Below are positions 1 through 62,106 of a stretch of DNA of 64,000 nt, piece after piece. The DNA is from Mobula hypostoma. Lineage: Eukaryota. Each line of letters begins with the position of its first letter. The stretch's first letter is position 1. The DNA lies in NCBI RefSeq assembly GCF_963921235.1, contig NW_026948140.1:248001-312000 (forward strand), read 5' to 3'. The position numbers and the translations under genes were made by a program. Below the pieces are notes generated by a model. That model had not been told where the DNA came from, ran no database searches, and saw only the letters and a list, made by a program, of their open reading frames with translations.

Positions 1-230
1 AGCGCCTTAAAACTATAGCCTCTCGTGCTAGCCATTTCAGCCCTGGAAAAAAGCCTCTGACTATCCACACGATCAATGCTTCTCATTATCTTGTACACCT
101 CTATCAGGTCACCTCTCATCCTCCGTCGCTCCAAGCAGAAAAGGCCAAGTTCACTCAACCTATTCTCGTAAGGCATTCAGGCAACATCCTTGTAAACCTC
201 CCCTGCACCCTTTCTATGGTTTCCACGTCC
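1..230 (-). mobile_element. CR1 LINE ORF2 3' fragment (subfamily B), cut by window edge
   Basis: Matches other minus-strand CR1 3' parts in the window (8200-8400, 12480-12647) that encode MRGDLIEVYK...FPRAEMA. Confidence 0.8.
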
Positions 231-12244: not shown

Positions 12245-12647
12245 TATAGAAATCTACTGCACATTACAGGTCCTCCGGCCCACAATGTTGTGCCGACCAT
12301 GTGACCTGCTCTAGAAACTGCCTAGAATTTCGCTATCACATTGCCTTCTATTTTTCGAAGTTCCATCTACCTATGCAGGAGTCTTATATTCGCCTGCACC
12401 ACCTTAGCTGGCAGTACATTCCACACACACAGCACCTTCTGAGTGAAAAACTTACCTTTGACATCCCCCTTGTTCCAGCTTCCAAGCACCTTAAAACTGT
12501 GCCTTCTCGTGCTAGCCATTTCAGCCCTCGGAAAAAGTCTCTGGCTATCCACACAATCAATGCCTCTCATCATCTTATACACCTCTATCAGGTCACCTCT
12601 CATCCTCTGTCACTCCGAGGAGAATAGGCTAAGTTCACTCAACCTAT
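12245..12647 (-). mobile_element. CR1 subfamily B 3' fragment
   Basis: ORF 12367-12603 MRGDLIEVYKMMRGIDCVDSQRLFPRAEMA. Confidence 0.85.
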
Positions 12648-12711
12648 GGCTGTACTTTTTTTCCATAGGTGCTGCCTGGCCTGCTGAGTTCCTCCAGCGA
12701 TTTGTGTGTTG
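12648..12711 (+). mobile_element. Penelope terminal-repeat fragment (type 2)
   Basis: ctgtactttttttccataggtgctgcctggcctgctgagttcctccagc matches 25149-25196 and 22574-22619. Confidence 0.75.
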
Positions 12712-13848
12712 ATCCAACTCCTTTACTCAGTGTCCTGACTGATGAAGGTCAGTATGTGAAAAGCCCTTTACATTAATCTATTTATCTGTGAGGTTGCTTT
12801 CAGCAAACTGTGCACATGTTCCAGGTCTCTCTCTTCTAATATACTCACTAGTGCCCTACCATTCAAAATATAAGTCCTACACTGGTTTGACTTTCAAAAA
12901 TGCATCACTTCAGGACAACTAGTTGGAGAGTTGGGCCACTCCAGGACAATGGAGGGAATTTATGCTCAAACACTGGATATGGGTAAGATGATACTTTGCA
13001 TCAGTATTCACCAAGGACATAGAACAGTGCAGTGCAGGACCACTCCTTAGGACCACAATGCCTATCTAAATGAATCCCTTCTGCCTACGCAATGTGCCCT
13101 GTACATATATACATGTACTTATCCAAAAGCCTCTTAAAATACCTCTATTAAATTTGCCTTCACTACCCTCACACACCTTAAATGCCTAAGCTCTAACATT
13201 AGAGATTATAGAACATAGAATAGTACTGCACAGTACAGGCCCTTCGGCCCACAATGTTCTGCCGACCCTCAAACCTTGCCTCCCATATAAGCCCCACCTT
13301 AAATTCCTCCATATACCTGTCTAGTAGTATCTTAAGCTTCACGAGTGTATCTGCCTCCACCACTGACTCAGGCAGAGCGTTCCATGCACCAACCACTCTC
13401 TGAGGTAAAAACCTTCCTCTAATATCCTCCTTGAACTTTTCACCCCTTACCTTAAAGCCATGTCCTCTTGTATTGAGCAGTGGTGCCCTGGGGAAGAGGC
13501 GCTGGCTATCTACTCTATCTATTCCTCTTACTATCTTGTACACCTCTATCATGTCTCCTCTCATCCTCCTTCTCTCCAAAGAGTAAAGCCCTAGCTCCCT
13601 TAATCTCTGATCATAATGCATACTCTCTAAACTAGGCATCCTAGTAAATCTCCTCTATACCCTTTCCAATGCTTCCAAATCCTTCCTATAGTGAGGCGAC
13701 CAGAACTGGACACAGTACTCCAAGTGTGGCCTAACCAGAGTTTTATAGAGCTGACAACAGGAATTCTGCAGATGCTGGAAATTCAAGCAACACACATCAA
13801 AGTTGCTGGTGAACGCAGCAGGCCAGGCAGCATCTATAGGAAGAGGCG

Positions 13849-13885
13849 CAGTCGACGTTTCAGGCCGAGCCCCTTCGTCAGGACT
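13849..13885 (-). ncRNA. Minimal type I hammerhead ribozyme motif in Penelope terminal repeat
   Basis: Minus strand agtc-CTGACGA-aggggctcggcct-GAAA-cGTC-gactg: intact catalytic core, stem I agtc/gact, palindromic ACGT stem III. Confidence 0.8.
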
Positions 13886-14499
13886 AACTGAAGGAAGAGT
13901 GAGTAAGGGATTTGAAAGCTGGAGGGGGAGGGGGAGATGCAAAATGATAGGAGAAGACAGGAGGGGGAGAGATAGAGCCGAGAGCTGGACAGGTGATAGG
14001 CAGAAGGGGATATGAGAGGATCATGGGACAGGAGGTCTGGGAAGAAAGACGGAGGGGGGGGTGACCCAGAGGATGGGCAAGAGGTATATTCAGAGGGACA
14101 GAGGGAGAAAAAGGAGAGTGAGAGAAAGAATGTGTGCATAAAAAAGAGTAACAGATGGGGTACGAGGGGGAGGTGGGGCCTAGCGGAAGTTAGAGAAGTC
14201 AATGTTCATGCCATCAGGTTGGAGGCTACCCATACGGAATATAAGGTGTTATTCCTCCAACCTGAGTGTGGCTTCATCTTTACAGTAGAGGAGGCCGTGG
14301 ATAGACATGTCAGAATGGGAATGGGATGTGGAATTAAAATGTGTGGCCACTGGGAGATCCTGCTTTCTCTGGCGGACAGAGCGTAGATGTTCAGCAAAGC
14401 GGTCTCCCAGTCTGCGTCGGGTCTCACCAATATATAAAAGGCCACATCGGGAGCACTGGACGCAGTATATCACCCCAGTCGACTCACAGGTGAAGTGAT

Positions 14500-16480
14500 T
14501 AGCCAGAGAAAGTGGCTCACCTGAGGACTGGGAGAAATTCAGAGTTCAGCAGAGGAGGACAAAGGGCTTAATTAGGAAGGGGAAAAAAGATTATGAGAGA
14601 AAACTGGCAGAGAACATAAAAACGGACTGTAAAAGCTTTTATAGATATGTAAAAAGGAAAAGACTGATAAAGACAAATGTAGGTCCCCTGCAAACAGAAA
14701 CAGGTGAATTGATTATGGGGAGCAAGGACATGGCAGACCAATTGAATAATTACTTTGGTTCTGTCTTCACTAAGGAGGACATAAATAATCTTCCAGAAAT
14801 AGTAAGGGACAGAGGGTCCAGTGAGATGGAGGAACTGAGCGAAATACATGTTAGTAGGGAAGTGGTGTTAGGTAAATTGAAGGGATTGAAGGCAGATAAA
14901 TCCCCAGGGCCAGATGGTCTGCATCCCAGAGTGCTTAAGGAAGTGGCCCAAGAAATAGTGGATGCATTAGTGATAATTTTTCAAAACTCGTTAGATTCTG
15001 GACTAGTTCCTGAGGATTGGAGGGTGGCTAATGTAACCCCACTTTTTAAAAAAGGAGGGAGAGAGAAACCGGGGAATTATAGGCCGGTTAGCCTAACGTC
15101 GGTGGTGGGGAAACTGCTGGAGTCAGTTATCAAGGATGTGATAACAGCACATTTGGAAAGCGGTGAAATGATCGGACAAAGTCAGCATGGATTTGTGAAA
15201 GGAAAATCATGTCTGACGAATCTCATAGAATTTTTTGAGGATGTAACTAGTAGAGTGGATAGGGGAGAACCAGTGGATGTGGTATATTTGGATTTTCAAA
15301 AGGCTTTTGACAAGGTCCCACATAGGAGATTAGTGTGCAAACTTAAAGCACACGGTATTGGGGGTAAGGTATTGGTGTGGGTGGAGAATTGGTTAGCAGA
15401 CAGGAAGCAAAGAGTGGGAATAAACGGGACCTTTTCAGAATGGCAGGCGGTGACTAGTGGGGTACCGCAAGGCTCAGTGCTGGGACCCCAGTTGTTTACA
15501 ATATATATTAATGACTTGGATGAGGGAATTAAATGCAGCATCTCCAAGTTTGCGGATGACACGAAGCTGGGTGGCAGTGTTAGCAGTGAGGAGGATGCTA
15601 AGAGGATGCAGGGTGACTTGGATAGGTTGGGTGAGTGGGCAAACTCATGGCAGATGCAATTTAATGTGGATAAATGTGAAGTTATCCACTTTGGTGGCAA
15701 AAATAGGAAAACAGATTATTATCTGAATGGTGGCCGATTAGGAAAAGGGGAGGTGCAACGAGACCTGGGTGTCATTATACACCAGTCATTGAAAGTGGGC
15801 ATGCAGGTACAGCAGGCGGTGAAAAAGGCGAACGGTATGCTGGCATTTATAGCGAGAGGATTCGAGTACAGGAGCAGGGAGGTACTACTGCAGTTGTACA
15901 AGGCCTTGGTGAGACCACACCTGGAGTATTGTGTGCAGTTTTGGTCCCCTAATCTGAGGAAAGACATCTTTGCCATAGAGGGAGTACAAAGAAGGTTCAC
16001 CAGATTGATTCCTGGGATGGCAGGTCTTTCATATGAAGAAAGACTGGATGAACTGGGCTTGTACTCGTTGGAATTTAGAAGATTGAGGGGGGATCTGATT
16101 GAAACGTATAAGATCCTAAAGGGATTGGACAGGCTAGATGCAGGAAGATTGTTCCCGATGTTGGGGAGGTCTAGAACGAGGGGTCACAGTTTGAGGATAG
16201 AGGGGAAGCCTTTTAGGACCGAGGTTAGGAAAAACTTCTTCACACAGAGAGTGGTGAATCTGTGGAATTCTCTGCCACAGCAAACTGTTGAGGCCAGTTC
16301 ATTAGCTATGTTTAAAAGGAAGTTAGATATGGCCCTTGTGGCTACAGGGGTCAGGGGGTATGGAGGGAAGGCTGGGTTCTGAGTTGGATGATCAGCCATG
16401 ATCATAATAAATGGCGGTGCAGGCTCGAAGGGCCGAATGGCCTACTCCTGCACCTATTTTCTATGTTTCTATGTTTCTAT
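14500..16480 (+). mobile_element. CR1 subfamily C, 5'-truncated, uninterrupted RT frame (young)
   Basis: 557-aa ORF 14709-16382 without stops; (tttctatg)n tail; TSD gtgat at 14495-14499 and 16481-16485. Confidence 0.96.
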
Positions 16481-19400
16481 GTGATGCCTCACCTGGAAGG
16501 ACTGTTTGGGGCCCTGAATGGTGCTAAGGGAGGAAGTGTAAGGGCATGTGTAGCACTTGTTCCGCTTACACGGATAAGTGCCAGGAGGGAGATCAGTGGG
16601 GAGGGATGGGGGGGCGAATGGACAAGGGAGTTGTGTAGGGAGCGATCCCTGCGGAATGCAGAGGGGGGGGGAGGGAAAGATATGCTTAGTGGTGGGATCC
16701 CGTTGGAGGTGGCGGAAGTTACGGAGAATAATATGTTGGACCCGGAGGCTGGTGGGGTGGTAGGTGAGAACCAGGGGAACCCTATTCCTAGTGGGGTGGT
16801 GGGAGGATGGAGTGAGAGCAGATGTACGTGAAATGGGGGAGATGCGTTTAAGAGCAGAGTTGATAGTGGAGGAAGGGAAGCCCCTTTCTTTAAAAAATGA
16901 AGACATCTCCCTCGTCCTAGAATGAAAAGCCTCATCCTGAGAGCAGATGCGGTGGAGACGGAGGAATTGCGAGAAGGGGATGGCGTTTTTGCAAGAGACA
17001 GGGTGAGAAGAGGAATAGTCCAGATAGCTGTGAGAGTCAGTAGGCTTATAGTAGACATCAGTGGATAAGCTGTCTCCAGAGACAGAGACAGAAAGATCTA
17101 GAAAGGGGAGGGAGGTGTCGGAAATGGACCAGGTAAACTTGAGGGCAGGGTGAAAGTTGGAGACAAAGTTAATAAAGTCAACGAGTTCTGCATGCGTGCA
17201 GGAAGCAGCGCCAATGCAGTCGTCGATGTAGCGAAGGAAAAGTGGGGGACAGATACCAGAATAGGCACGGAACATAGATTGTTCCACAAACCCAACAAAA
17301 AGGCAGGCATAGCTAGGACCCATACGGGTGCCCATAGCTACACCTTTAGTTTGGAGGAAATGGGAGGAGCAAAAGGAGAAATTATTAAGAGTAAGGACTA
17401 ATTCTGCTAGATGGAGCAGAGTGGTGGTAGAGGGGAACTGATTAGGTCTGGAATCCAAAAAGAAGCGTAGAGCTTTGAGACCTTCCTGATGGGGGATGGA
17501 AGTATATAGGGACTGGACATCCATGGTGAAAATAAAGCGGTGGGGGCCAGGGAACTTAAAATCATCGAAAAGTTTAAGAGCGTGAGAAGTGTCACGAACA
17601 TAGGTCGGAAGGGATTGAACAAGGGGTGATAAAACAGTGTCGAGGTATGCTGCATCATTACATCACGACTCTTAAACTCTATCCCTCGACTTATGAAAGC
17701 TAACACCCCATAAGCTTTCTTAACTACCCTATCCACCTGTGAGGCAACTTTCAGGGGTCTGTGGACATGTACCCCGAGATCCCTCTGCTCCTCCACACTA
17801 CCAAGTATCCTGACATTTACTTTGTACTCTGCCTTGGACTTTGTTCTTCCAAAGTGTACCACCTCACACTTCTCTGGGTTTAACTCCATCTGCCACTTCT
17901 CAGCCCACTTCTGCATCCTATCAATGTCTCTCTGCAATCTTTGACAATTCTCTACACTATCTACAACACCACCAACATTTATGTCATCTGCAAACTTGCC
18001 AACCCACCCTTCTACCCCCACATCCAGGTCGTTAATAAAAATCACGAAAAGTAGAGGTCCCAGAACAGATCCTTGTGGGACTCCACTAGTCACAATCCTC
18101 CAATCTGAATATACTCCCTCCACCATGACCCTCTGCGTTCTGCAGGCAAGCCAATTCTGAATCCACCTGGCCAAACTTCCCTGGATCCCATGCCTTCTGA
18201 CTTTCTGAATAAGACTACTGTGTGGAACCTTGTCAAATGCCTTACTAAAATCCATGTAGATTACATCCACTGCACTATCCTCATCTATATGCCTGGTCAC
18301 CTCCTCAAAGAACTCTATCAAGCTTGTTAGACACGATCTGCCCTTCACAAAGCCATGCTGACTGTCCCTGATCAGACCATTCTCTAAATGCCCATGATTC
18401 TCTAAACGCCCAGAGATCCTATCTCTAAGAATTTTTTCCAACAGCTTTCCCACCACAGACGTACGGCTCACTGGTCTATAATTACCCGGACTATCCCTAC
18501 TACCTTTTTTGAACAAGGGAACAACATTCGCCTCCCTCCAATCCTCTGGTACCATTCCCATGGACAACGAGGACATAAAGATCCTAGACAGAGGCTCAGC
18601 AATCTCTTCCCTCACCTCGTGGAGCAGCCTGGGGAATATTCCATCAGGCCCCGGGGTCTTATCCGTCCTAATGTATTTTAACAACTCCAACACCTCCTCT
18701 CTCTTAATATCAACATGCTCCAGAACATCAACCTCACTCGTATTGTCCTCACCGTCATCAAGTTCCCTCTCATTGGTGAATACCAAAGAGAAGTATTCAT
18801 TGAGGACATCGCTCACTTCCACAGCCTCCAGGCACATCTTCCCACCTTTATCTCTAATCGGTCCTACCTTCACTCCTGTTATCCTTTCGTTCTTCACATA
18901 ATTGAAGAATGCCTTAGTGTTTTCCTTTAATCTACTCGCCAAGGCCTTCTCTTGCCCGCTTCTTGCTCTTCTCAGCCCCTTCTTAAGCTCCTTTCTTGCT
19001 TCCCTATATTCCTCAATAGACCCATCTGATCCTTGCTTCCTAAACTTCATGTGTGCTGCCTTCTTCCACCTAACCTGATTTTCCACCTCACTTGTCACCC
19101 ATGGTTCCTTCGCCCTACCATTCTTTATCTTCCTCACCGGGACAAATTTATCCCTAACATCCTGCAAGAGATCTCTAAATATCGAACACATGTCCATAGT
19201 ACATTTCCCTGCAAAAATATCATCCCAATTCACACCCGCAAGTTCTAGCCTTATAGCCATAATTTGCCCTTGCCAAATAAAAATTTTCCTGTCCTTTCTG
19301 ATTCTATCCTTTTCCATGATAATGCTAAAGGCCAGGGAGCAGTAGTCACTGTCACCCAGATGCTCACCCACTGAGAGATCTGTGACCTGACCCGGTTCAT

Positions 19401-22502: not shown

Positions 22503-22635
22503 CCACTTCCTTTATAGGGCCTCTGCCCCCTCCCTCTTCAGTCCTGACAAAGGGTTCCGGCCCGAAACGTTGACTGCTCATTTCCATGGATGCTGCCCGG
22601 CCTGCTGAGTTCCTCCAGCGTGTTGTGCGTGTTGC
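22503..22635 (+). mobile_element. Penelope terminal-repeat fragment (type 2) with mutated hammerhead
   Basis: cagtc-CTGACAA-agggttccggccc-GAAA-cgtt-gactg at 22539-22576, then gatgctgcccggcctgctgagttcctccagc. Confidence 0.8.
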
Positions 22636-22835
22636 CAGATCGTTGCTCGTTGCTTCAGCCAGTGTGGTAAATCACGTTCTCGACCGCCTAGAATTGTGTA
22701 TTCCAAGTTCTGTTTCTGCGTTGTTTGCCTGTGTTAACTCAGTCTCTCGGCCGCCTAGAACTGTGTATTCTAAGCAACACACATCAAAGTTGCTGGTGAA
22801 CGCAGCAGGCCAGGCAGCATCTCTAGGAAGAGGTA

Positions 22836-22872
22836 CAGTCGACGTTTCAAGCCGAGACCCTTCATCAGGACT
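22836..22872 (-). ncRNA. Minimal hammerhead ribozyme motif
   Basis: Minus strand agtc-CTGATGA-agggtctcggctt-GAAA-cGTC-gactg. Confidence 0.75.
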
Positions 22873-23255
22873 AACTGAAGGAAGAGTAAGGGATTTGAAA
22901 GTTGGAGGGGGAGGGGGAGATCCAAAATGATAGGAGAAGACAGGAGGGGGAAGGGATGGAGCCAAGAGCTGGACAGGTGATAGGCAAAGGGGATAGAGAG
23001 GATCATGGGACAGGAGGTCCGGGAAGAAAGACGGGGAGGGGGAACCAGAGGATGGGCAAGGGGCATATTCAGAGGGACCGAGGGAGAAAAAGGAGAGTGA
23101 GAGAAAGAATGTGTATAAAAATAAGTAACAGATGGGGTACGAGGGGGAGGTGGGGCATTAGCGGAAGTTAGAGAAGTCGATGTTCATGCCATCAGGTTGA
23201 AGGCTACCCAGACGGAACATAAGGCCCTGATCCCTTACTCACTCTTCCTTCAGTT

Positions 23256-23292
23256 AGTCCTGACGAAGGGTCTCGGCCTGAAACGTCGACTG
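23256..23292 (+). ncRNA. Minimal hammerhead ribozyme motif
   Basis: agtc-CTGACGA-agggtctcggcct-GAAA-cGTC-gactg; predicted cleavage after position 23287. Confidence 0.82.
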
Positions 23293-23709
23293 TACCTCTT
23301 CCTAGAGATGCTGCCTGGCCTGCTGCGTTCACCAGCAACTTTGATGTGTGTTGCTTGAATTTCCAGCATCTGCAGAATTCCTGTTGTCTGTGTATTCTAA
23401 GTTTTGTTTTGCGCTGTTGTTTCGCTTTGTTAACTCTGCCTCTCCGTGTTAACAGGAGCATGGCATGCCGCCCACCGTTCTCCTCCCGCCACACCTCATC
23501 CCGCCGCCCGTCTGCACTCTCCGCCGGATCAGCGGTTAAACGCTGCGTTCTCATCGTAGTGACCTGGGTTTGATCCCTGATCCAGCCTCGCTCACTCCTC
23601 GGCTTTCCTCTGCCTAATCCTCGCTCCCCGGCCTTCTCTGCAACCATTAATACACACTCTTCTGATTAAGTGTCCTGCGTTTGGGTTCGCCCGTTTTCCG
23701 TGCAACACA

Positions 23710-24959: not shown

Positions 24960-26480
24960 GGTCATAGAGACACAAAGAAATACAGCACAGAAGCATGGTA
25001 AAGGAAAACAAGCGGAGTGTGAGGCAAAACCCTATGCTTGTAATAGCAACGCACACAAATTACTGGAGGAACTCAGCAGGCCAGGCAGCATCTATGGAAA
25101 AAAGTATAGTCGACGTTTTGAGCCTAGGGTTTTGGCTTGAAATGTCCACTGTACTTTTTTCCATAGATGCTGCCTGGCCTGCTGAGTTCCTCCAGCATTT
25201 CATGTGTTACTCGGATTTCCAGCATCTGCTGATTTTCTCATGTCTATGCTTATAGTAGTCAAAGTTAATGGAAAACCCATGAAAGCTCTTTTAGATCCTG
25301 GTAGCCACTGTAATTAATTAATGAATTATGCCCCTGTTTTGGTGTTGACTATAGTCACCAAACACCTGTCCAGTATGTACATGGTGACAGGAAGTCTAAG
25401 CCACTGGCAGAACTTGCAAGATGACCATAAGTACTTGCTGAACGTGGGGCGACTGGAGAAACTACCAGTTGACATGATTCTGGGGAGAGATTTGCCTGTG
25501 TTACAGGAGGAAGAGAAATAGCCACTCTATCTTTTACTCCAGTAGTGGATAGTGCTGTTTTGCATTTTGGCATGACTCATGCTAAAACGAAAGCAATGGT
25601 TGGGTTACACTCTATGCCTAATTTGGATGCTAGTCTGTGTGAGGGAGGAAACAAAAGGCCTAGAAGTCACTCCAGCAATGGTACCTTGGTTCTTCAGGCT
25701 CTGTTGATATTTGTACAGATTATGTATCTATTGAAGATGAAATGGAAGGGGTTGAAGAGTCCTGGTAGGTCCTGGGAAAGTTTACCTCTTCCATCTCGAT
25801 GGCTGCCAACCAACAGAGCTGCAGAGGTCTTTGCTGACTTTCCTGAGCTGTTCCAGCAGAGTCCAGAGCTGACAAACGTCCTAAAACATTCCATCAGGAT
25901 CAGAACACCAACACTGTTACCGAGTGCCGGAGTGACTTGTGGGGTCCTGCAGGATGAGATTCGAACTATGCTGGAGTTTGGAGTCATCGATATTTCAAAT
26001 AATGATTGGAGCAGTCCTATCATTATCGTCCCCAAGAAGGACAGCAGCCAGAGGATATGCATCGATTTCAGAAGTTGAATGCCATTTCTTTTCTTGATGC
26101 TTATCCTCTGCCCCACATTGATGACCTATTCATAAGGATTGGACTGGCAAACTAAATTACTACAGTGGACCTTTGCAAGAGCTACTGGCAGGTTCCCTGG
26201 ATGACCAGTCAGAACCCCTCACTGCCCCTGGGTCTGTTTTCGTTCACTGTGATGCACTTTGTTCTTCATGGTAGAGCAGCAGTTCTGTGAGGACCGCAAT
26301 ACAACCTACCTGGATGAAGTGGTTATTTCCAGCCAGATGTATTCAGAGCAACTGGACCAACTGCACAGGGTCTTGGGGAATATTCGTGCTGTAGGTCTCA
26401 CCCTCAATCTACAAATATGTGAGTGGGCAAAATGGGATACCAGAGACCAGATATGTTGGCTACCAGCTGGGACATGGAGA
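24960..26480 (+). mobile_element. Decayed Gypsy/Ty3 pol remnant (protease and RT)
   Basis: VKVNGKPMKALLDPGS (aspartic protease), WSSPIIIVPKKDSSQRICIDFR, DAYPLPHIDDL, DLCKSYWQVP, YLDEVVISS. Confidence 0.85.
25047..25243. mobile_element. Fold-back Penelope terminal-repeat insertion (type 2)
   Basis: Arms ~25047-25118 and ~25133-25210 are reverse complements; degenerate TSD ctatgcttgtaatag (25032-25046) and ctatgcttatagtag (25244-25258). Confidence 0.88.
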
Positions 26481-27325: not shown

Positions 27326-27369
27326 CCCCAGTGCTCATTTGTAAGCCCAACCAGAGATATTGTCTATTG

Positions 27370-28116
27370 CAACACACATCAAAGTTGCTGGCGAACGCAG
27401 CAGGCCAGGCAGCATCTGTAGGAAGAGGTACAGTCGATGTTTCAGGCCGAGACCCTTCGTCAGGACTAACTGAAGGAAGAGATAGTAAAAGATTTAAAAG
27501 TGGGAGGGGGAGGGGGAGGTTCAAAATGATAGGAGAAGACAGGAGGGGGAGGGATGGAGCCAAGAGCTGGACAGGTGATTGGCAAAGGGGATATGAGAGA
27601 ATCATGGGATAGGAGGTCTGGGGAGAAAGACAAGTGGGGGGGGGGGAACCAGAGGATGGGCAAGGGGTATAGTCAGAGGGACAGAGGGAGAAAAAGGAAA
27701 GTGAGAGAAAGAATGTGTGTATAAAAATAAATAACGGATGGGGTATGGGGGGAGGTGGGGTGGTAGCGGAAGTTTGAGAAGTCGATGTTCATGCCATCAG
27801 GTTGGAGGCTACCCAGACAGAATATAAGGTGTTGTTCCTCCAACCTGAGTGTGGCTTCATCTTTACAGTAGGGGAGGCCATGGATAGACATGTCAGAATG
27901 GGAATGGGATGAGGAATTAAAATGTGTGGCCACTGGGAGATCCTGCTTTCTCTGGCGGACAGAGCGTAGGTGTTCAGCAAAGCGGTCTCCCAGTCTGCGT
28001 CGGGTCTCGCCAATATATAGAAGGCCACATCGGGAGCACCGGACACAGTATATCACCCCAGCCGACTCACAGGTGAAGTGTCACCTCACCTGGAAGGATT
28101 GTTTGGGGCCCTGACA
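27370..28116 (-). mobile_element. Penelope 3' fragment (GIY-YIG and terminal repeat)
   Basis: ORF 27673-28056 IYCVRCSRCGLLYIGET; TSD atattgtctattg (27357-27369) and atatcgtctattg (28117-28129); hammerhead at 27431-27467 with a stem III CpG mutation. Confidence 0.93.
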
Positions 28117-29105: not shown

Positions 29106-32100
29106 AATGAAGGGAGGAGAAGGGAAAGAACAATGAGTCAACATCCAGGTGTGTTAAACAGGAGGGAAGAAATTGATGATATAATTGATGATCCATTTAC
29201 ATTGGCAGAAATGGTGAGAGCAATAAAGAGATCGAGACCAACCTCCCCAGGGAAAGATCTGATGTGCTCTGTTATGCTAAAAAATCTAGGAGATGGATCA
29301 CTCTTGAAGTTGCTGCATTTTTATAACAGAGTGTGGGAGGAGGGAAGATTACCAAATGCATTGAAAGAAGCAGTAGTAATTCCATTAAGGAAACATGGCA
29401 AGGATCCGTCAAAACCCATTAGCTACAGACCCAACAGCATTAACATCAAATATATGCAAGATAATGGAAAGGATAATAACAGAAAGGTTATCGTATGAGC
29501 TTGAGAAGAGGGGAATGCTGGCAAGTTATCAGAGTGATTTTAGGAAGGGAAGGAGTTCCATGGACTCAGTGATAAGGTTAGAGACTGAAATAAGGAAGGC
29601 CCAGGCAAATAAAGAGTCTGTAGTTGCAGTGTTTTTTGACATCGAAAAAGCCTGTGATATGATGTGGAAGGAAGGATTGTTAATTAAACTGCACAAGATG
29701 AGGATTGGTCGGGGATTTTTTAATTGGATTAAAGATTTTTTGTTTGGTAGAAAAATTCAAGTTCGGTTTGGATCAGAATTATCAAAACAGTACGTAATGG
29801 AAAATGGCACATCTCAAGGTAGTGTGATTAGCCCGTTACTTTTCATCATTATGATCAATGATGTCTTCACAAAGGTACCAGGGGATATAGGTAGGTCACT
29901 GTTTGCAGATGATGGGGCCTTGTGGAAAAGAGGCAGGAACATGGAGCATATAATCAGGAAACTACAAGGAGCAATTGATGAAGTGGTAGAGTGGGGTTAT
30001 GATTGGGGATGTAGATTTTCAGTAGAAAAAACTCCAACTGTATTTTTCATCAGGAGAAGAATTGAGGTAGGGAAGAAGTTAAGGATGTATGGGATTGAAT
30101 TAGAAAGGGTTGGATCATTTACATTTCTGGGAATTATATTTGATTCACGATTAACATGGGCAGACCATATCAGGAAAGTTGAGGAGAAATGTGAAAAAGT
30201 AATAAATGTGATGAGATGTTTGACTGGTAGGGAATGGGGAGCAAGTTGTTCAGCGCTGAAGAGAATGTATGTGGCTTTAGTGAGATCTGTGTTGGACTAT
30301 GGAAATATAGCATATGGATCAGCTGCTAGGTCTCTTATAAGGAAACTGGATGTGATTCAGGCTCAGGCTTTGAGAGTGTGCAGTGGGGCTTTTAAAACAT
30401 CATCAGTGTCAGCCCTACGGGTAGAAATGGGAGTAATGCCTTTGGAACTAAGAAGGATGCAATTGATGGCAAACTACTGGGCTAATCTGCAGGGGCATAA
30501 TGATTCTCAGCCTGCTAAAGGAGTATTGCAGGAATGCTGGGAAAATGGGAGGTTTCAGAGGGATAACTTTAGTCGGGTAGGGAATGATATTGCTAAAGAA
30601 TGTGGAGTGTTTGATCCAAGAATAAGTCCTTCAGTAGTTTATCCGGTTGTAGCTCCATGGAAGCTTGTATGGCCTGACATAGACTGGCATTTGTTCGAGG
30701 TAAAAAGGAAAGGAAAATATAAAACTGATTTGGTAAATGCACTTAACTGTCATGTGATGGAAAAGTATAGTGATTATACTCAGATTTATACGGATGGTGC
30801 TAAGGAACCTGAAACAGGAGTGACAGGGTTTGGGGTGGCTGTACGAGCAAACGAAATTGGAATCAGCAGAAGAACATCTAATAAATTAGGGGTGTATACA
30901 GTGGAGATGCTGGCAGTGTTGGTTGCATTGCGATGGGTGGAGAAAGCTGGACAAGTCAAAGTGTTGATATGCTCAGATTCATCCTCAGTTCTAGCAAGTG
31001 TAAGGTCTTTACACTCAAACAGTCGGCAAGATGTACTTTATGAAGTCCTTCAGTTAGTCACAAGAATTGAAAATCAGGGAGGTCAGGTAAAATTTCTATG
31101 GGTTCCTGCACATGTAGGGGTGAAGGGGAATGAGAGGGTGGATGAGTTGGCAAAGAGGGCGTTAAAGAAAGAAAATATAGAAATGCACATTAGTATCAGT
31201 AAAGCAGAGATTAAGTGTGTAATCTGGGAAAAAAAATCAACCAAATGTGGCAAGAAAGATGGGACAGGGAGGGGAAAGGGAGGCATTTATATCAAATACA
31301 AAAGAGTGTTGCAGGTACTAGGGTAGGTAGTGGATACAGAAGAGAGGAAACTGTGTGGACTAGGTTAAGGCTGGGGCACTGTGCGTTAAACAAATCATTG
31401 AAAATGATAGGGAAACACCAGACAGGATTGTGTGAGGAATGTCAGGAAGAGGAGTCAGTAGAACATGTAGTTCTGAGTTGCTAGAAGTATGGGATACAGA
31501 GAGAGGTGATGATAATCAATCGAAGAGAACTGGGGGTGCAGGAACTCACATTAAAAGGGTTGCTGGGCATTGGTGAGAGAGCACAGGTCAGGATATTTTT
31601 AGCTTTCTTAAGGGATACGGGGGTTTTTTTATAGGATATGATGGATAAGCAGGAATAGGGTACTAGAATGACCAAAGGTGAGAGAATAAAGTGTAGGTTA
31701 GGGTATGTGTGTGTGTGATTGGGTGAAGGGATTTAGAATAGAAACATAGAAAATAGGTGCAGGAGTAGCCCATTCGGCCCTTCGAGCCTGCACCACCATT
31801 TAGTACGATCATGGCTGATCATCCAACTCAGAACCCTGTACCAGCCTTCCCCCCATACCCCCTGATCCCTTTAGCCACAAGGGCCATATCTAACTCCCTC
31901 TTAAATATAGCCAGTGAACTGGACTCAACTGTTTCCTGTGGCAGAGAATTCCACAGATTCACCACTCTCTGTGTGAAGAAGTTTTTCCTAATCTCGGTCC
32001 TAAAAGGCTTCCCCTTTATCCTTAGACTGTGACCCCTCGTTCTGCACTTCCCCAACAGTGGGAACAATCTTCCTACATCTAGCCTGTCCAATCCCTTTAG

Positions 32101-44013: not shown

Positions 44014-44372
44014 GGCAAACACGAGGAAATCTGTGGATGCTGGAATTTCAAGCAACACACATAAAAATTGCTGGCGAACACAGTAGGCCAGGCAGCATCT
44101 ATAGGAAGACGTACAGTTGACTTTGGGCTGAGACCCTTCGTCAAGACTAACTGAAGGAAGAGATAGTAAGAGATTTGAACGTGGGAGGGGGAGGGAGAGA
44201 TCGGAAATGATAGTAGAGGACAGGAGGGGGAGGGATAGAGCTAAGAGCTGGAAAGTTGATTGGCAAAAGGGATATAAGAGGATCATGGGACAGGAGGCTA
44301 AGGGAGAAAGAAAGGTAGGGGAGGGAAGCCCAGAGGATGGGCAAGGAGTACAGTCAGAGGGACAGAGGGAGA

Positions 44373-44403
<31 letters not shown>

Positions 44404-47400
44404 AAATAAACAAATAAACAAACAAACAAATACATAAATAAATAACGGATGGGGTATGAGGGGGAGGTGGGGCATTAACAGAAGTTAGAGAAGTCAATGT
44501 TCATGCCATCAGGTTGGAGGCTACCCAGACGGAATATAAGGTGTTGTTCCTCCAACCTGAGTGTGGCTTCATCTTTACAGTAGAGGAGGCCGTGGATAGA
44601 CATATCAGAATGGGGATGAGATGTGGAATTAAAATGTGTGGCCACTGGGATATCCTGCATTCTCTGGCGGACAGAGCGTAGATGTTCAGCAAAGCGGTCT
44701 CCCAGTCTGCGTCGGGTCTCGCCAATATATAGAAGGCCACATCGGGAGCACCAGACGCAGTATATCACCCCAGCCGACTCACAGGTGAAGTGTCGCCTCA
44801 CCTGGAAGGGCTGTCTGGGGCCCTGAATGGTTGTGAGGGAGGAAGTGTAAAGGCATGTGTAGCACTTGTTCCACTTACAAGGATAAGTGCCGGGAGGGAA
44901 ATCAGTGGGAAGCGATGTGGGGGACGAATGGACAAGGGAGTTGCGTAGGGAGCGATCGCTGCGGAAAGCAGAGAGGCATGGAGGAAAGATGTGCTTAGTG
45001 GTGGGATCCCGTTGGAGGTGGCGGAAGTTACGGAGAATCATATGTTGGACCCGGAGGCTGGTGGGGTGGTAGGTGAGGACCAGGGGAACCCTATTCCAAG
45101 TGGGGTGGCGGGAGGATGGGGTGAGAACAGATGTGCGTGAAATGGGAGAGATGCATTTGAGAGCAGAGTTGATGGTGGAGGAAGGGAAGCCCCTTTCTTT
45201 AAAAAAGGAAGACATCTCCTTTGTCCTGGAATGAAAAGCCTCATCCTGAGAGCAGATGTGGCAGAGACGGAGGAATTGCGAGAAGGGGATGGCATTTTTG
45301 CAAGAGACAGGGTGAGAAGACGAATAGTCCAGGTAGCTGTGAGAGTCCGTCGGCTTATAGTAGACATCAGGAAGATAAGCTGTCTGCAGAGATAGAGACA
45401 GAAAGATCAAGAAAGGGGAGGGAGGTGTCGAAAATGGACCAGGTAAATGGGCGATCTGGAAGACCGTGTAAGGAATCTGGAGCAGCAGCTAGATGACCTT
45501 CGACTCATAAGGGAGAATGAGGCAGTCATAGATGAGAGCTACAGGGAGGTAGCCACACCTAGGCTGTCGGAAGCAGGTCGTTGGGTGACAGTCAGAGGGG
45601 GGAAAGTGAAGGGGGGGAAAGTGAAGGTGAGCAGACAGGTAGTGCAGAGCACCCCTGTAGCCATTCCCCTGAATAATAAGTTTATCGTCTTGGATACTGT
45701 TGGCGGGGACGACCGACCAGGTGTGAGCCATGGTGGCAGGGCCTCCGGCACTGAGTCTGACCCTGTGGTGCAGAAGGGTGGCACGAAGAAGATGAAAGCT
45801 GTCGTCATTGGAGACTCTATAGTCAGGGGAGCAGACAGGAGATTTTGCGGACGTGAGAAGGACACCCGCATGGTTTGTTGCCTCCCGGGTGCCAGGGTCC
45901 CGGATGTCTCTGACCGGGTGCATGACATCCTGGTACGAGAGGGAAAGCAGCCAGAAGTCGTGATATATCTTGGGACCAACGACAGAGGCAGGAAGAGGTA
46001 TGACGTCCTGAAGTGTGAGTTTCGGGAACTTGGCAGAAGGCTGAAGAACAGGATCTCAAGGGTGGCGTTCTCAGGATTGCTGCCAGTGCTACGTGACAGT
46101 GATGGTAAGAATTGGAGGAGATGGCAGTTGAATGCGTGGCTGAGGAGTTGGTGCAGGGAGCAGGGTTTTAGATTTTTAGATCATTGGGATCTCTTCTGGG
46201 GAAGGTGGGGCCTGTACAGATTGGATGGGTTGCATCTGAACTCGAGGGGGAGCAATATCTTTGCAGGTAGGTTTGCTAGCATGGTTCGGAAGGGTTTAAA
46301 CTAATTTGCAAGGGGGATGGGACCCAGAGCGATAGAGCAGTGAAAGAAGTGCATGGAGTAAAGCCAGATCTAACATACAGAGAGGCTTTGAGGAAAGAGA
46401 AGCAGAATAAACGGTGTAAAGACAGTAAGGTAGAAGGGCTGAAATGTGTGTACCTCAATGCAAAAAGCATCAGGAACAAAGGTGATGAACTGAGAGCTTG
46501 GATACATACATGGAATTATGATGTAGTGGCCATTACAGAGACTTGGCTGGCACCAGGGCAGGAATGGATTCTCAATATTCCTGGATTTCAGTGCTTTAAA
46601 AGGGATAGAGAGGGCGGAAAAAGGGGAGAAGGGGTGGCATTACTGGTCAGGGATACTATTACAGCTTCAAAAAGGGTGGGTAATGTAGCAGGATCCTCTT
46701 TTGAGTCAATATGGGTGGAAGTCAGGAACAGGAAGGGAGCAGTTACTCTACTGGGGGTATTCTATAGGCCACCTGGTAGCAGCAGAAATACAGAGGAGCA
46801 GATTGGGAGGCAGATTTTGGAAAGGTGCAAAAATAACAGGGTTGTTATCATGGGTGACTTTAACTTCCCTAATATTGATTGGCACCTGATTAGTTCCAAG
46901 GGTTTAGATGGGGCAGAACTTGTTAAGTGTGTCCAGCATGGATTCCTATCACAGTATGTGGACAGGCCGACCAGGGGGAATGCCATACTAGATCTAGTAC
47001 TAGGTAATGAACCGGGTCAGGTCACAGATCTCTCAGTGGGTGAGCATCTGGGGGACAGTGACCACCGCTCCCAGGCCTTTATAATTATCATGGAACCCCA
47101 AGGCATTCTTCAATTATGTGTAGAAAAAAAGGATGACAGGAGTGAAGGTAGGACCGAGTAGAGATAAAGGTGGGAAGATGTGCCTGGAGGCTGTGGAAGT
47201 GAGCGAGGTCCTCAATGAATACCTCTCTTCAGTATTCACCAATGAGAGGGAACTTGATGATGGTGAGGACAATATGAGTGAGGTTGATGTTCTGGAGCAT
47301 GTTGATATTAAGGGAGAGGAGGTGTTAGAGTTGTTAAAATACATTAGGACAGGTAAGTCCCCGGGGCCTGATGGAATATTCCCCAGGCTGCTCCAAGAGG

Positions 47401-49668
47401 CGAGAGAAGAGATTACTGAGCCTCTGGCTAGGATCTTTATGTCCTCGTTGTCCACGGGAATGGTACCGGAGGATTGGAGGGAGGCGAATGTTGTTCCCTT
47501 GTTCAAAAAAGGTAGCAGGGATAGTCCGGGTAATTATAGACCAGTGAGCCTTACGTCTGTGGTGGGAAAGCTGTTGGAAAAGATTCTTAGAGATAGGATC
47601 TATAGGCATTTAGAGAATCATGGTCTGATCAGGGACAGTCAGCATGGCTTTCTGAAGGGCAGATCGTGTCTAACAAGCCTGATAGAGTTCTTTGAGGAGG
47701 TGACCAGGCATATAGATGAGGGTAGTGCAGTGGATATGATCTATATGGATTTGAGTAAGGCATTTGACAAGGTTCCACACGGTAGGCTTATTCAGAAAGT
47801 TAGAAGGCATGGGATCCAGGGAAGTTTGGCCAGGTGGATTCAGAATTGGCTTGCCTGCAGAAGGCAGAGGGTGGTGGTTGAGGGAGTATATTCATATTGG
47901 AGGATTGTGACTAGTGGTGTCCCACAAGGATCTGTTCTGGGACCTCTACTTTTCGTGATTTTTATTAACGACCTGGATGTGAGGGTAGAAGGGTGGGTTA
48001 GCAAGTTTGCAGATGACACAAATGTTGGTGGTGTTGTAAATAGTGTAGAGGATTGTCAAAGATTGCAGAGAGACATTGATAGGATGCAGAAGTGGGCTGA
48101 GAAGTGGCAGATGGAGTTCAACCCGGAGAAGTGTGAGGTGGTACACTTTGGAAGGATAAACTCCAAGGCAAAGTACAATGTAAATGGCAGGATACTTGGT
48201 AGTGTGGAGGAGCAGAGGGATCTCGGGGTACATGTCCACAGATCCCTGAAAGTTGCCTCACAGGTGGATAGGGTAGTTAAGAAAGCTTATGGGGTGTTAG
48301 CTTTCATAAGTCGAGGGATAGAGTTTAAGAGTCGCGATGTAATAACGCAGCTCTATAAAACTCTGGTTAGGTCACACTTGGAGTACTGTGTCCAGTTCTG
48401 GTCACCTCACTATAGGAAGGATGTGGAAGCATTGGAAAGGGTACAGAGGAGATTTACCAGGATGCTGGCTGGTTTAGAAAGTATGCATTATGATCAGTGA
48501 TTAAGGGAGTTAGGGCTTTACTCTTTGGAGAGAAGGAGGATGAGAAGAGACATGATAGAGGTGTACAAGATAATAAGAGGAATAGATAGAGTGGATAGCC
48601 AGCGCCTCTTCCCCAGGGCACCACTGCTCAATACAAGAGGACATGGCTTTAAGGTAAGGGGTGGGAAGTTCAAGGGGGATATTAGAGGAAGGTTTTTTAC
48701 TCAGAGAGTGGTTGGTGCGTGGAATGCACTGCCTGAGTCAGTGGTGGAGGCAGATACACTCGTGAAGTTTAAGAGACTACTGGACAAGTATATGGAGGAA
48801 TCTAAGGTGGGGGCTTATATGGGAGGCAGGGTTTGAGGGTCGGCACAACATTGTGGGCCGAAGGGCCTGTACTGTGCTGTACTATACTATTCTATCTTCT
48901 ATGTTCTATGTTCTATGTTCTATAAACTTGAGGGCAGGGTGAAAGTTGGAGGCAAAGTTAATGAAGTCAACGAGCTCAGCATGTGTGCAGGAAGCAGCGC
49001 CAATGCAGTCGTTGATGTAGCGAAGGAAAAGTGGGGGACTTATACCAGTACAGGCTTGGAACAAGGATTGTTCCACAAAGCCAACAAAAAGGCAGGCATA
49101 GCTGGGACCCATACGGATGCCCATGGCTACACCTTTATTTTGGAGGAAGTGGAAGGAGCCAAAGGAGAAATTATTGAGAGTAAGGACTAATTCCGCTGGA
49201 CAGAGCAGAGTGGTGGTAGAGGGGAACTGGTTAGGTTTGGAATCCAAAAAAAAGCAAACAGCTTTGAGATCTTCCTGGTGGGGGGTGGAAGTATATAGGG
49301 ACTGGACATCCATGGTGAAAATAAAGCGGTGGGGGCCAGGGAACTTAAAATCATCAAAAAAATTCAGAGTGTGAGAAGTGTTACGAACATAGGTAGGAAG
49401 GATTGAACAATGGGGTATAAAACAGTGTCGAGGTATACAGAAATGAGTTTGGTGGGGCAGGAGCAAGCTGAGACAATGGGTCTGCCTGGACATGCAGGTT
49501 TATGGATCTTGGGCAGGAGGTAGAAACGGGAAATGTGGGGTGTGGGAACTATAAGGTTGGTAGCAGTGGAGATCTTACTCCAGTGGATGGGAGATCCCCT
49601 GAGCGGATAAAGTTGGTGATGGTGTGGGAGACAACGGGTTGGTGCTCCTTAGTGGGGCACCAATTTTT
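44014..49668 (-). mobile_element. Penelope-like element B (44014-45447 plus 48923-49668), split by CR1-A
   Basis: ORFs 48906-49493 (RT core) and 44475-45410 (thumb, Cys linker, GIY-YIG); TSD ataaaatgatta at 44002-44013 and 49669-49680; decayed hammerhead at ~44114-44148. Confidence 0.94.
45448..48922 (+). mobile_element. CR1 subfamily A, near full length, with ~0.4 kb internal deletion
   Basis: ORF1 45447-46304, APE 46340-47093, RT 47133-48500; TSD taaa at 45444-45447 and 48923-48926. Confidence 0.95.
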
Positions 49669-54745: not shown

Positions 54746-55591
54746 ACCACAACTCTATCTTTCAGCATACAGGTGACAGGACTGTCAGGAGAGGGAAGGA
54801 GGAATGTCAGACAGTGGAGAGCACCCGTGTGGCCATCCCCCTCGACAACAAGTACTCCATTTTGAATACTGTTGGGGGGAGGGGTGACCTACCTGGAGGA
54901 AGCAACAGTGGATGTGCCTCTGGCACTGAGTCTGGCCCTGTGGCTTAGAAGGGTAGGGAACTAAAGAGGATGGCAGCAGTTGTAGACAGGGGACCAGATA
55001 GGTGATTCTGTGGATGCAAAAAGGAAACACGGATGGTAGCTTGCCTCCCAGGTGCCAAGGTCCAAGATGTTTCTGGACATGCCCACAATATCCTGATACG
55101 GGAGGGTGAGCAGCCAGAAATCGTAGTACATATTGGTACCAATGACATAAGAGGAAAAAGGGAGGAGATCCTGAAAAAAGAATACAGGGAGTTAGGAAGA
55201 AAGCTGAGAAGCAGGACCTCAAGGTTAATAATCTTAGGATTGCTTCCTGTGCCATGCAGCAGTGAGGGTAGGAATGGAACGAGGTGGCAGATAAATGGGT
55301 GGCTGAAGAATTGCAGCAGGGGGCAGGGTTTCAGATTTTTGGATAATTGGGACTTCTTCTGGGGTAGGTGTGATCTGTACAAAAGGGGTGGGTTGCACTT
55401 GAATTCTAAGGGGACCTATATTTTTGTTGGCAGATTTACTAGAGCTGTTGAGAATAGTTTAAACTAATATGGCAGGGGAATGGGAAACAGGATGAGCCTG
55501 CAGGTCTACAAATAGATGATGGGTGTAATATGAATGTAAGGAAGGACAAACCACTGATTGGGTCCAAATGCAGACAGAGCAAAGAGTTACA

Positions 55592-56767
55592 TTGAGGCGA
55601 GGACATGGCGAGGCCTGGGTCCCTCGAGGCGAGGACATGCCGAGGCCTGGGTCCCTCGAGGCGAGGACATGCCGAGGCCTGGGTCCCTCGAGGCGAGGAC
55701 ATGCCGAGGCCTGGGTCCCTCGAGGCGAGGACATGCCGAGGCCTGGGTCCCTCGAGGCGAGGACATGCCGAGGCCTGGGTCCCTCGAGGCTTCGGTATGG
55801 ACTCCGAGCCAGAGACTGGGCAAGGACCCAGAACCTGGGTCTTGACTTGGGCTCGGACTCCAGAACTAGACGAAGACATGACGTGGCTACAGGACTGGAC
55901 GTGGAGCTCCTGCACAGGACGAGGCACATGGACAAGGCGAGGTTCTTGGACGTGGCTTGGACAGGGCGAGGGAACCCCAGCACCTGGCTAGGCGTGGTAC
56001 TCCTGGGTTGGGTGAGGCACATGGACAGGACGAGAACACGAAGCCTTGACTAGGTCGAGGGAAACAGGAACACAGAGCCTTGGTCTTTGGAGACAGAAAC
56101 GCAGAACCTCGGTTGAGGGAGGACAGGAATGCAGAGCCTTGGTCTTGAGAGGACAGGAACACAGAGACGTGGAACACAGGGCCAGGACCGCTCCTCGGGA
56201 ACAGGACTTGGGGCCAGGGCTCTACAGAGTCAGGACCCTTCCTAGGGAGCAGGACGTAGGGCCGGGACTCGTACACAGAACACAGAGAGACAGTTCTCAA
56301 CACAAGGTAGCAGCAAGTGGCCGGACCTACCTAGCGAAGGCGTGGACACAGATTTGGTTCCCAACACAAGGTAGTGGCAAATGGCCAGACCTACCTAGTG
56401 AAGGCGTGGACACAGAGAGATAGTTCCAAACAACGACAGACAGTTTCTTATCCTGACATAACAAGGCTCCGGTCTTGCTCCGACGGTTGAACTTGACAGT
56501 GGAGCAGGCGAAGGTTGCAGGCAAGGCAAGGCTTGCAGGTGAGGCAGGGCAAGGTTTCAGGAGGAAGGGACCAAAAAGGGATTCAGACAGGGGGCTTTGA
56601 CAGGAACAATCCAGCAACTGAAGCTGAACCAAGGAAGCTGAAGCTGAACCAAGGAGCTATTTATGTAGCCAGCCCAAAATGTGAATCAGCTGCCTCAATT
56701 AGAGCACCCAATAGAAAAAGGGAAAACCAGAAAACCTGGAATACGGAATGATGGACCGGACGTTACG
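55592..56767 (-). mobile_element. LTR-like non-coding element containing a minisatellite
   Basis: Minus strand begins cgtaacgtcc (a TGTAAC-like LTR start); ~55-bp internal duplication at 56298 and 56363; distal end missing together with part of the CR1 APE. Confidence 0.5.
55594..55790. repeat. 32-bp minisatellite, 6 copies plus 5 bp
   Basis: Unit gaggcgaggacatgccgaggcctgggtccctc, head to tail, with one substitution in unit 1. Confidence 0.95.
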
Positions 56768-61400: not shown

Positions 61401-62106
61401 ATCCCGCCAGGATATTAGTACCCTTTGAGTTCAGGTGTAACCCATCGTTTTTGTATAAGTCATACCTCCCCCAAAATAGATCCCAATGATTCAAGAATTT
61501 GAAGCCCTGTCCCCTGCACCAGTTACTTAGCCACACATTCATCTGCTTAACTCTACTATTCTTACCTTCATTAGCGTGCAGCTCAGGCAGCAATCCTGAG
61601 ATTATTACTCTGGAGGTCCGGCTTTTCAATTTTCTTCCTAGCTCCCAGTAATCTTCCTTCAGGACCTCCTCTCTTTTTCTGTCTATGTCATTGGTACCAA
61701 CATGTACCAAGACTTCTGGCTGCTCGCCCTCTCCCCTCAGAATACTCTGGACCCAATCTGAGACATCCTGTACCTGGGCACCAGGGAGGCAACACACCAT
61801 CCGGGTATCCTTGTCCGGCTCGCAGAATCTCTTGGCTGTTTTCCTCACTATGGAATCCCCTATAATTGCTGCATTTCTCCTTGCTCTCTTGATCATGACA
61901 CTGGGCAGAGTGTCAGAGTCCTGTTCGCTGTTGTCTTCCTCTGTCAGTTCAACCTCTCCAACAGTATCTAAAACGATATATTGATTTCTGAGGGGGACTG
62001 TCACAGAGGTTCTGTCCACTATCTCTCTATAGGTATTATCAATCACCTCCTCACTTTCCCTAATTAGCTGAAGGTCATCAAGTTGTAGCTCCAGATCCCT
62101 AACACT
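58416..62106 (-). mobile_element. CR1 subfamily E, truncated in ORF1
   Basis: ORF1 esterase (IIGDSIV, HVGTND) in 61366-62106; APE 60919-61272; RT 59711-60184, 59252-59665, 58845-59243 and 58418-58687. Confidence 0.93.
60609..60637 (+). mobile_element. Ultra-short Rex1-like tail insertion
   Basis: tcaataaagtacgactatgactatgacta matches the 3' terminus of the element at 8407-8925. Confidence 0.75.

Follow-up and report, generated by a model that had tools for sequence, protein, structure and literature searches.

The 37-nt motif at positions 23256–23292 of the window (the whole 64,000-nt stretch of DNA analyzed here) is, judged on its sequence, a minimal type I hammerhead (min-HHR) sequence, and it lies in the pseudo-LTR of a Penelope-like element (PLE) that is young and of Neptune type. 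Our preferred reading, to which we assign a probability of roughly 0.55, is that this hammerhead would cut rarely, as a dimer and probably aided by the element's own protein, and that most inserted copies stem from uncut RNA and are likely inert. The hammerhead and the PLE copies in the window are given below, with + and − offsets counted here and throughout from C17 (window position 23287), the base 5′ of the predicted cut.

23256–23292 (+): anchor minimal hammerhead, a descriptor match whose identical 37-mer occurs 32,520 times in the genome
23230–23388 (+): inverted arm of a PLE insertion, from −57 to about +101, ending at the long (tail) 3′ end
22775–23224 (−): other arm of the same insertion, from −391 to about +65, with the short (tail-less) 3′ end and the hammerhead at 22836–22872
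22761–22774 (+): left copy of the 14-bp target-site duplication
23388–23401 (+): right copy of the 14-bp target-site duplication
13754–14499 (−): 3′ portion of a young copy of the PLE, which shares 98% identity with a full unit found elsewhere
16481–17650 (−): RT–thumb–linker part of the 13754–14499 copy (RVT_1, E = 1.9e-5, below the Pfam cut-off)
27369–28114 (−): 5′-truncated PLE copy (92%) with the hammerhead at 27431–27467
44015–45447 (−): older PLE copy (88%) with a CX4CxxC linker and GIY-YIG endonuclease (GIY-YIG E = 8.5e-4, below the cut-off)
48923–49657 (−): RT part continuing the 44015–45447 copy across an inserted LINE, where unit positions −1298 and −1295 meet
22540–22612 (+): short copy of the second subtype (loop UCCG, G10.1–C11.1), carrying G8A and C17U
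25034–25238 (unstranded): two short arms of an older subfamily folded back head to head, with their junction near 25118–25126
12639–12710 (+): decayed remnant of sequence from downstream of the hammerhead, lacking the core and absent from the original prediction

The anchor consists of the 5′ helix I strand AGUC (23256–23259), CUGACGA (23260–23266), an extra A (23267), stem II (23268–23279; G-U, G-C, G-C, and U-G pairs with a CUCG loop), GAAA (23280–23283), CG (23284–23285), U16.1 (23286), C17 (23287), and the 3′ helix I strand GACU (23288–23292). An ACGT palindrome occupies 23283–23286, and helix III is absent. The original prediction had placed intact cores at three sites, and all three coordinates and strands hold: the layout AGTC-CTGANGA-A-GGG-N6-CCT-GAAA-CG-TC-GACT, with every core letter, occurs at 23256–23292 (+), 22836–22872 (−), and 13849–13885 (−). 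The 5′ end that it expected at 23288 agrees with our placement, since C17 lies at 23287 and cleavage would fall at 23287/23288. The complete min-HHR core is present (C3 U4 G5 A6 N7 G8 A9 / G12 A13 A14 A15.1 / U16.1 H17), together with a helix I of 4–5 bp, helix II, and the extra nucleotide that separates position 9 from 10.1, which is A in 159 of 167 aligned copies. The 10.1–11.1 pair is G-U in the three intact window copies, as opposed to the usual G-C. In the predicted fold of the isolated 37-mer, the pairs of helix I and stem II have probabilities of 0.85–0.97.

A scan of the window with a type I hammerhead descriptor, which the original prediction had proposed as a check, returned four minimal matches (the three intact copies and 27431–27467), compared to 0.03 per window in 100 Markov shuffles. 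The companion check with a covariance model failed to recover the motif: an Rfam scan of the window found no hammerhead family at E ≤ 5, a silence that is expected because the motif lacks helix III. The attributes of a canonical type I hammerhead (helix III, a 6-bp helix I with tertiary contacts, and an Rfam match) were not found in the motif, and the folding energy of 23240–23392 was not unusual (z −0.87). If the motif resembled a hammerhead only by chance within a repeat, Rfam, covariation, and folding energy would all be expected to lack signal, as they do, and the high copy number would represent one sequence multiplied; we nonetheless consider chance very improbable, given the rate of matches in shuffled windows, the conservation between lineages described below, and features outside the descriptor (the extra nucleotide, G10.1, palindromic 15.2–16.2, and the pseudo-LTR position) that fit the published class. 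Position and anatomy thus largely refute this explanation. A minimal hammerhead on the sense strand of a PLE pseudo-LTR, as the original prediction stated, is an arrangement of a published kind (PMC4209133).

Within the window, the hammerheads at 22836 (−) and 23256 (+) are inverted arms of one insertion, not separate copies, and because they are inverted they cannot pair as a cis dimer or supply two sense ribozymes to one transcript. The young copy at 13754–14499 holds the end of the endonuclease, the 3′ UTR, the intact hammerhead at 13849–13885, and a tail to +100; a CR1-type LINE (about 14498–16480) splits it from its upstream part at 16481–17650, which a second LINE cuts off at 17649. The copies with hammerheads at 13849, 27431, and 44114 extend upstream into coding sequence with RT and GIY-YIG similarity (below Pfam cut-offs). 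The hammerhead at 27431–27467 carries G16.2A, which breaks the ACGT palindrome and leaves the rest of the core intact, and that at 44114–44148, about 330 nt past the stop codon, has decayed through C3U, G12A, and a 2-nt deletion. Among the damaged copies listed in the original prediction, those at 22540, 27431, and 44114 are as described; 25105–25152, however, is a fold-back junction without CUGANGA in either arm, the arms stopping inside the hammerhead at −6 and −20 relative to C17.

The window is dense in CR1/L2-type LINE fragments, and CR1-type LINEs at 14498–16480 and 45447–48923 sit within two PLE copies. Because one of the interrupted copies matches a full young unit at 98% identity, CR1 and the PLE have both been recently active. 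Other frames were characterized by eye: 29389–31326 (+) is a 645-aa frame with an RT and an RNase H-like C-terminal part, of a LINE type unlike the surrounding CR1, and a frame at 25473–26078 (+) resembles a gypsy-type protease–RT junction. A short tandem repeat with repetitive open frames on both strands lies at 55439–56053. There is also a 223-aa open frame at 62089–62760 (−), which resembles a processed copy of an SDS3/SUDS3-type host gene.

Full PLE units measure 3.5 kb and occur in direct tandems at loci elsewhere in the genome. Three direct hammerheads at locus L181 are spaced by 3,493 and 3,497 nt, and loci L188 and L190 have two each, spaced by 3,513 and 3,512 nt. C17 follows the ORF stop by about 330 nt and precedes by 138 nt the first ATG common to the three tandem loci, two of which have an extra in-frame ATG at +61; all three full-unit loci are frameshifted. 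The element has one ORF with an RT plus, at its C terminus, a GIY-YIG endonuclease with CCHH, as in endonuclease-containing (EN+) PLEs, and the hammerhead lies on its sense strand, in the pseudo-LTR. It also has partial tandem pseudo-LTRs, an inverted 5′-truncated copy, a tail of 30–40 nt at one end, and a target duplication, and features of these kinds have been described for EN+ PLEs (PMC8557442). A CX2-5CxxC linker between RT and endonuclease is present as CKRNKCYTC, and this linker is common to the Neptune and Nematis clades (PMC8557442); we infer Neptune from the linker, shared as it is with Nematis, together with the vertebrate host. The family is young, because its scored RT matches are 99–100% identical (40 scored of 1,589 candidates).

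The element is abundant. The exact 37-mer counts given above come from a 3.48-Gb genome, to judge by its repeats probably that of a cartilaginous fish, in which the reversed control had 0 matches, and a 35-place pattern (A6; N7 and loop free) has 54,669. In a random 1.2-Mb sample, made up of 120 pieces of 10 kb at round coordinates on nine large contigs, a profile search found 223 fragments, compared to 0 in reversed sequence, which extrapolates to ~650,000 genome-wide; 28 of these fragments pass a fixed-geometry intact descriptor (~81,000 by extrapolation), and the PLE covers 5.5% of the sample. Neighbors within 300 nt of each other in the 1.2 Mb comprised 33 head-to-head, 9 same-strand, and 4 tail-to-tail pairs. 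Short non-coding hammerhead tandems, the mark of a non-LTR retrozyme, are not what we found; the direct repeats are 3.5-kb coding units. At loci L199 and L188, the long inverted arms of one insertion differ, over about 390 nt, by 5+1 and 9+2 changes, similar to the differences between separate insertions, and the inverted arm of L199 is nearer to L190 (2 changes) than to its own partner arm. From these sequences, separate RNA molecules may have given rise to the two arms of a single insertion.

To assess constraint on the motif, comparison between lineages is the informative one. Majority sequences taken from 15 copies of a clade with C at position 6 (C6) and from 10 copies of an older grade match the young copy at 34 and 35 of the 37 hammerhead positions, respectively, whereas matches elsewhere are 50–51% in the 3′ UTR, 47–53% at +6..+20, 77% at +21..+55, and 84–88% in endonuclease coding sequence. 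Hammerhead identity between lineages (92–95%) is far above that of the UTR (about 50%), and the hammerhead is therefore under constraint, although constraint nearby is not unique to the ribozyme because +21..+55 is also conserved. Conservation begins exactly at helix I and stops at the helix I 3′ strand (the ends are loose in one comparison). The letters that differ between lineages are N7, loop II, and 11.1, plus position 6 in one lineage.

Across inserted copies, the original prediction had anticipated an excess of core over flank conservation, and the core proved only slightly better preserved than the downstream block. Core changes numbered 76/1,193 compared to 405/4,260 in the downstream block (0.064 vs 0.095; raw p=0.0006), but none of four base classes, tested over 79 full-span rows, showed a significant excess. 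Among 33 young copies, there were 0/297 core changes and 12/594 flank changes (p=0.011, bases pooled). The near-neutral decay of inserted copies makes this core-versus-flank test a weak one. As to the stems, which the original prediction described as persisting across repeat subtypes, their identity does persist but covariation was not seen: the aligned copies contain no compensatory double stem change, and the sole subfamily-level stem change is the one-sided C11.1U. U2.1–A1.1 occurs in 4 of 120 rows, where it is inseparable from CpG decay, and helix I covariation in the oldest copies was examined on too few rows to read.

If the hammerhead routinely processed its own RNA at C17 and thereby defined the ends of the element RNA, as the strong form of the original prediction holds, the ends of inserted copies would be expected to record it. 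The 3′ ends fell at +57..76 or +95..104 in 46/48 random young copies and in 60/60 copies picked by a motif at +14..+52, and none of the 108 copies had a 3′ end at C17. Such a two-site 3′ tail signature reflects internal RT initiation, as shown for an Anolis element (PMC11167929). These 3′ ends lie beyond the cut site, and the hammerhead-bearing copies were thus made from RNA intact at that site; nearly all inserted copies read through it. At the other end, 5′ ends at +1 were found in 0/48 random young copies and 1/60 motif-picked copies. A further 18 of the 60 motif-picked copies (18/56 at risk) had 5′ ends at −39..−10, a rate of 0.011 per nt compared to 0.0004–0.0016 beyond −72. This pile-up of 5′ truncations spans the 5′ half of the hammerhead at about ten times the rate further upstream, and an RT pause or a transcription start is a possible cause. 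A recurrent 5′ end at −57 (7/30 loci), which we had also entertained as a candidate site, was a selection effect of the query junction and was absent from unbiased samples.

Genome-wide, where a 5′ end was counted when a copy's three upstream bases all mismatched, we found 486 ends at +1, compared to 77 at 0, 178 at +2, 138 at +4, and 183 at −2. This peak speaks for routine processing, but it amounts to about 1% of copies and consists mostly of inversion junctions: of the first 40 listed +1 cases, 29 were inversion junctions, 7 arose by direct joining or small deletion, and 4 were joined to host DNA, and the first 20 listed +2 cases comprised 10, 6, and 4, respectively. In 27 of the 29 inversions at +1, the partner arm ends at −12..−36, inside the hammerhead, compared to 0 of 10 at +2, a pattern that cut RNA held together by helix I could produce. 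Twenty of the 29, however, carry a 3–5 nt BLAST overlap (GACU from helix I, GAC from stem II), and host-joined ends, scaled to the full counts, come to about 49 for +1 and 36 for +2 (4/40 vs 4/20, Fisher p=0.42). We therefore reject the +1 peak as a cleavage footprint, since most of it is accounted for by microhomology at the junctions, and no excess of host-joined ends was seen in these small samples. From the sequences, the peak appears real, small, and explicable without cleavage, with cut RNA held by helix I a possible contributor. Together with the lack of 3′ ends at C17 among the 108 copies, these results make routine self-processing improbable, whereas self-processing of the element RNA as such, as the original prediction inferred from the motif, is plausible.

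Variation in the core itself bears on whether the motif cuts at all. U11.1, and with it G10.1–U11.1, is fixed in the youngest subfamily, the anchor included; C11.1 is found in a slightly older one, and the typical G10.1–C11.1 pair is present in older subfamilies. At position 6, 153 random fragments had C in 21 and T in 2, the strict pattern gave 579 C compared to 174 T, and a subfamily pattern with position 6 free had 1,159 matches, with C in 95 of the first 100 listed. Sixteen copies (15 C, 1 T) form a clade on their own endonuclease sequence (support 0.93), in a tree that kept 122 of 593 hits after leaving out rows with <90 aligned endonuclease residues upstream; its midpoint root fell on a badly aligned copy, and we drew from it the C6 clade only, not the order of A6C. 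Thus, an older endonuclease-bearing lineage spread widely with A6C, keeping the remainder of the hammerhead. None of the seven window copies in the original prediction shows C6. Contigs of four sequencing runs aligned to a C6 copy partly retain C, a hint that the C6 lineage is shared with relatives. In C6 copies L291–L320, the stem II loop is mostly UUCG and its first position is U in 24 of 30, and A6C with U7 recreates CUGA three bases downstream, predicted to pair with an upstream UCAG. A predicted upstream hairpin hides the core of the youngest subfamily in its native context (hammerhead pairs p≤0.05). As a conserved upstream off-switch in the youngest subfamily and U7 C6 copies, such a hairpin was rejected, because, of 16 copies, a single one outperformed shuffled upstream sequence at the 5% level. 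The predicted dimer helix is only 4 bp, −1.7 kcal/mol as a bare duplex, and two copies are predicted to favor a longer, non-hammerhead duplex.

Because the A6C lineage amplified and the youngest subfamily lost G10.1–C11.1, catalysis may be weak or absent. One can ask, then, whether the motif no longer cuts and has been kept for another role, such as a translation or promoter element, a fold bound by RT, or the joining of inverted arms through helix I complementarity. The fixation of A6C in a lineage with its own endonuclease fits such a loss, as does the reading-through of the site by inserted copies, and helix I and stem II complementarity accounts for many inversion junctions. The same substitution strongly lowers Mg-dependent cutting in other hammerheads, and in that of phage Bcep176 it lowers such cutting and favors Mn (PMC3088659, PMC7151607), and Naiad PLEs proliferate without canonical hammerheads (PMC8557442). 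We nevertheless regard this alternative as doubtful, because the conserved block is bounded by the two helix I strands, its variable letters are mostly those that hammerheads leave free (N7, loop II, and the wobble-preserving 11.1), and A6C hammerheads retain some activity, with good activity in Mn (PMC7151607).

We therefore return to rare, dimeric cutting of the Neptune-type element, for which we propose the following course. Transcription through a tandem would yield one RNA with two hammerheads, whose ACGU palindromes could pair to form helix III. Cutting would be slow and probably protein-assisted by analogy with Anolis, where the PLE hammerhead cut only with protein, in vitro insertion did not require it, and RNA-seq showed no ends at the site (PMC11167929). 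An occasional double cut would free a 3.5-kb unit that ligation could close into a circle. Reverse transcription would begin internally, near +65 or +102, and because a cut linear unit, ending at C17, would lack the 3′ start site, copies holding a hammerhead could come only from a circle or from uncut read-through RNA. Among the cut products, the circle alone would keep the 3′ UTR and the RT start site in line, and more than one round of copying on it would rebuild the upstream pseudo-LTR. This rebuilding, needed by new master copies, would keep the motif selected even though most single insertions skip its use. Tandem repeats within an insertion are near-identical (0 mismatches and 1 gap at L190, 0–3 mismatches at L181, over about 390 nt), compared to mostly 6–14 mismatches between insertions. 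At these two loci, the near-identity would fit one circular template, and recent duplication at the DNA level or a tandem source would fit too. A bolder version, which we put forward tentatively and think unlikely, holds that the rare cut closes the circle that rebuilds the pseudo-LTR, that lineages with weakened cores still spread, and that the +1 ends are a fossil of the cut in a vertebrate germline; the weakened cores would be A6C, or G10.1–U11.1 with a masking upstream hairpin, in tens of thousands of copies.

Min-HHRs are known in metazoan PLE pseudo-LTRs, including those of the fish elements Xena, Poseidon, and Neptune (Cervera and de la Peña, 2014; PMC4209133), and because such fish hammerheads have been in print since 2014, the presence of one here is ordinary. 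For the question of what PLE hammerheads do (PMC8557442, PMC11167929), this genome is a very large sample, with near-identical copies in the tens of thousands, complete tandem units, and three natural core or stem variants, and it allows the role of the hammerhead to be tested by junction statistics and a few cleavage assays. What this genome usefully adds is evidence for read-through, an explanation of the +1 peak, and a lineage with A6C that can serve as test material. A literature search that included shark and cartilaginous-fish terms found no report of this PLE family, and a search for A6C in a PLE likewise found none, although either could be listed in supplementary material or figures.

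The element shares with the published min-HHRs a type I architecture, a helix I of 4–5 bp, the extra nucleotide between 9 and 10.1, the lack of helix III beyond palindromic 15.1–16.1, a pseudo-LTR site, mostly single dispersed copies, opposite-strand pairs 100–700 bp apart, and direct pairs about 3 kb apart (PMC4209133). Its stem II is short (3–4 bp), compared to 7–8 bp in the Schistosoma min-HHR, and its youngest subfamily has G10.1–U11.1 in place of the G10.1–C11.1 typical of min-HHRs. The sections of PMC4209133 consulted here report U3–A8 and leave A6C unmentioned; the study calls about 4,000 copies in coelacanth and 9,000 in Xenopus remarkable, compared to the 54,669 pattern matches here, although the descriptors differ. 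As in Poseidon of Anolis carolinensis (Frangieh et al., 2024; PMC11167929), there are two RT start sites downstream of the hammerhead, 3′ end classes about 35–40 nt apart, and copies made through the uncut ribozyme. The Anolis ORF, in contrast, begins inside stem II, with the cut 26 nt into the ORF, whereas the first shared ATG here lies 138 nt past the cut; the Anolis element also belongs to another clade, and the linker zinc-finger motif is present here. Phage Bcep176 carries the same A6C substitution as the older C6 lineage (PMC3088659, PMC7151607), but in a single phage ribozyme with full helices, whereas here A6C is fixed on a minimal scaffold in one multi-copy lineage of an animal retrotransposon. 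The animal non-LTR retrozymes (Li et al., 2026; 10.64898/2026.07.22.740005), for which one chondrichthyan was sampled, also have type I hammerheads of PLE origin; they are short, ORF-less tandem repeats, whereas the hammerheads described here belong to a 3.5-kb coding element whose truncated ends occur mostly solo or head-to-head.
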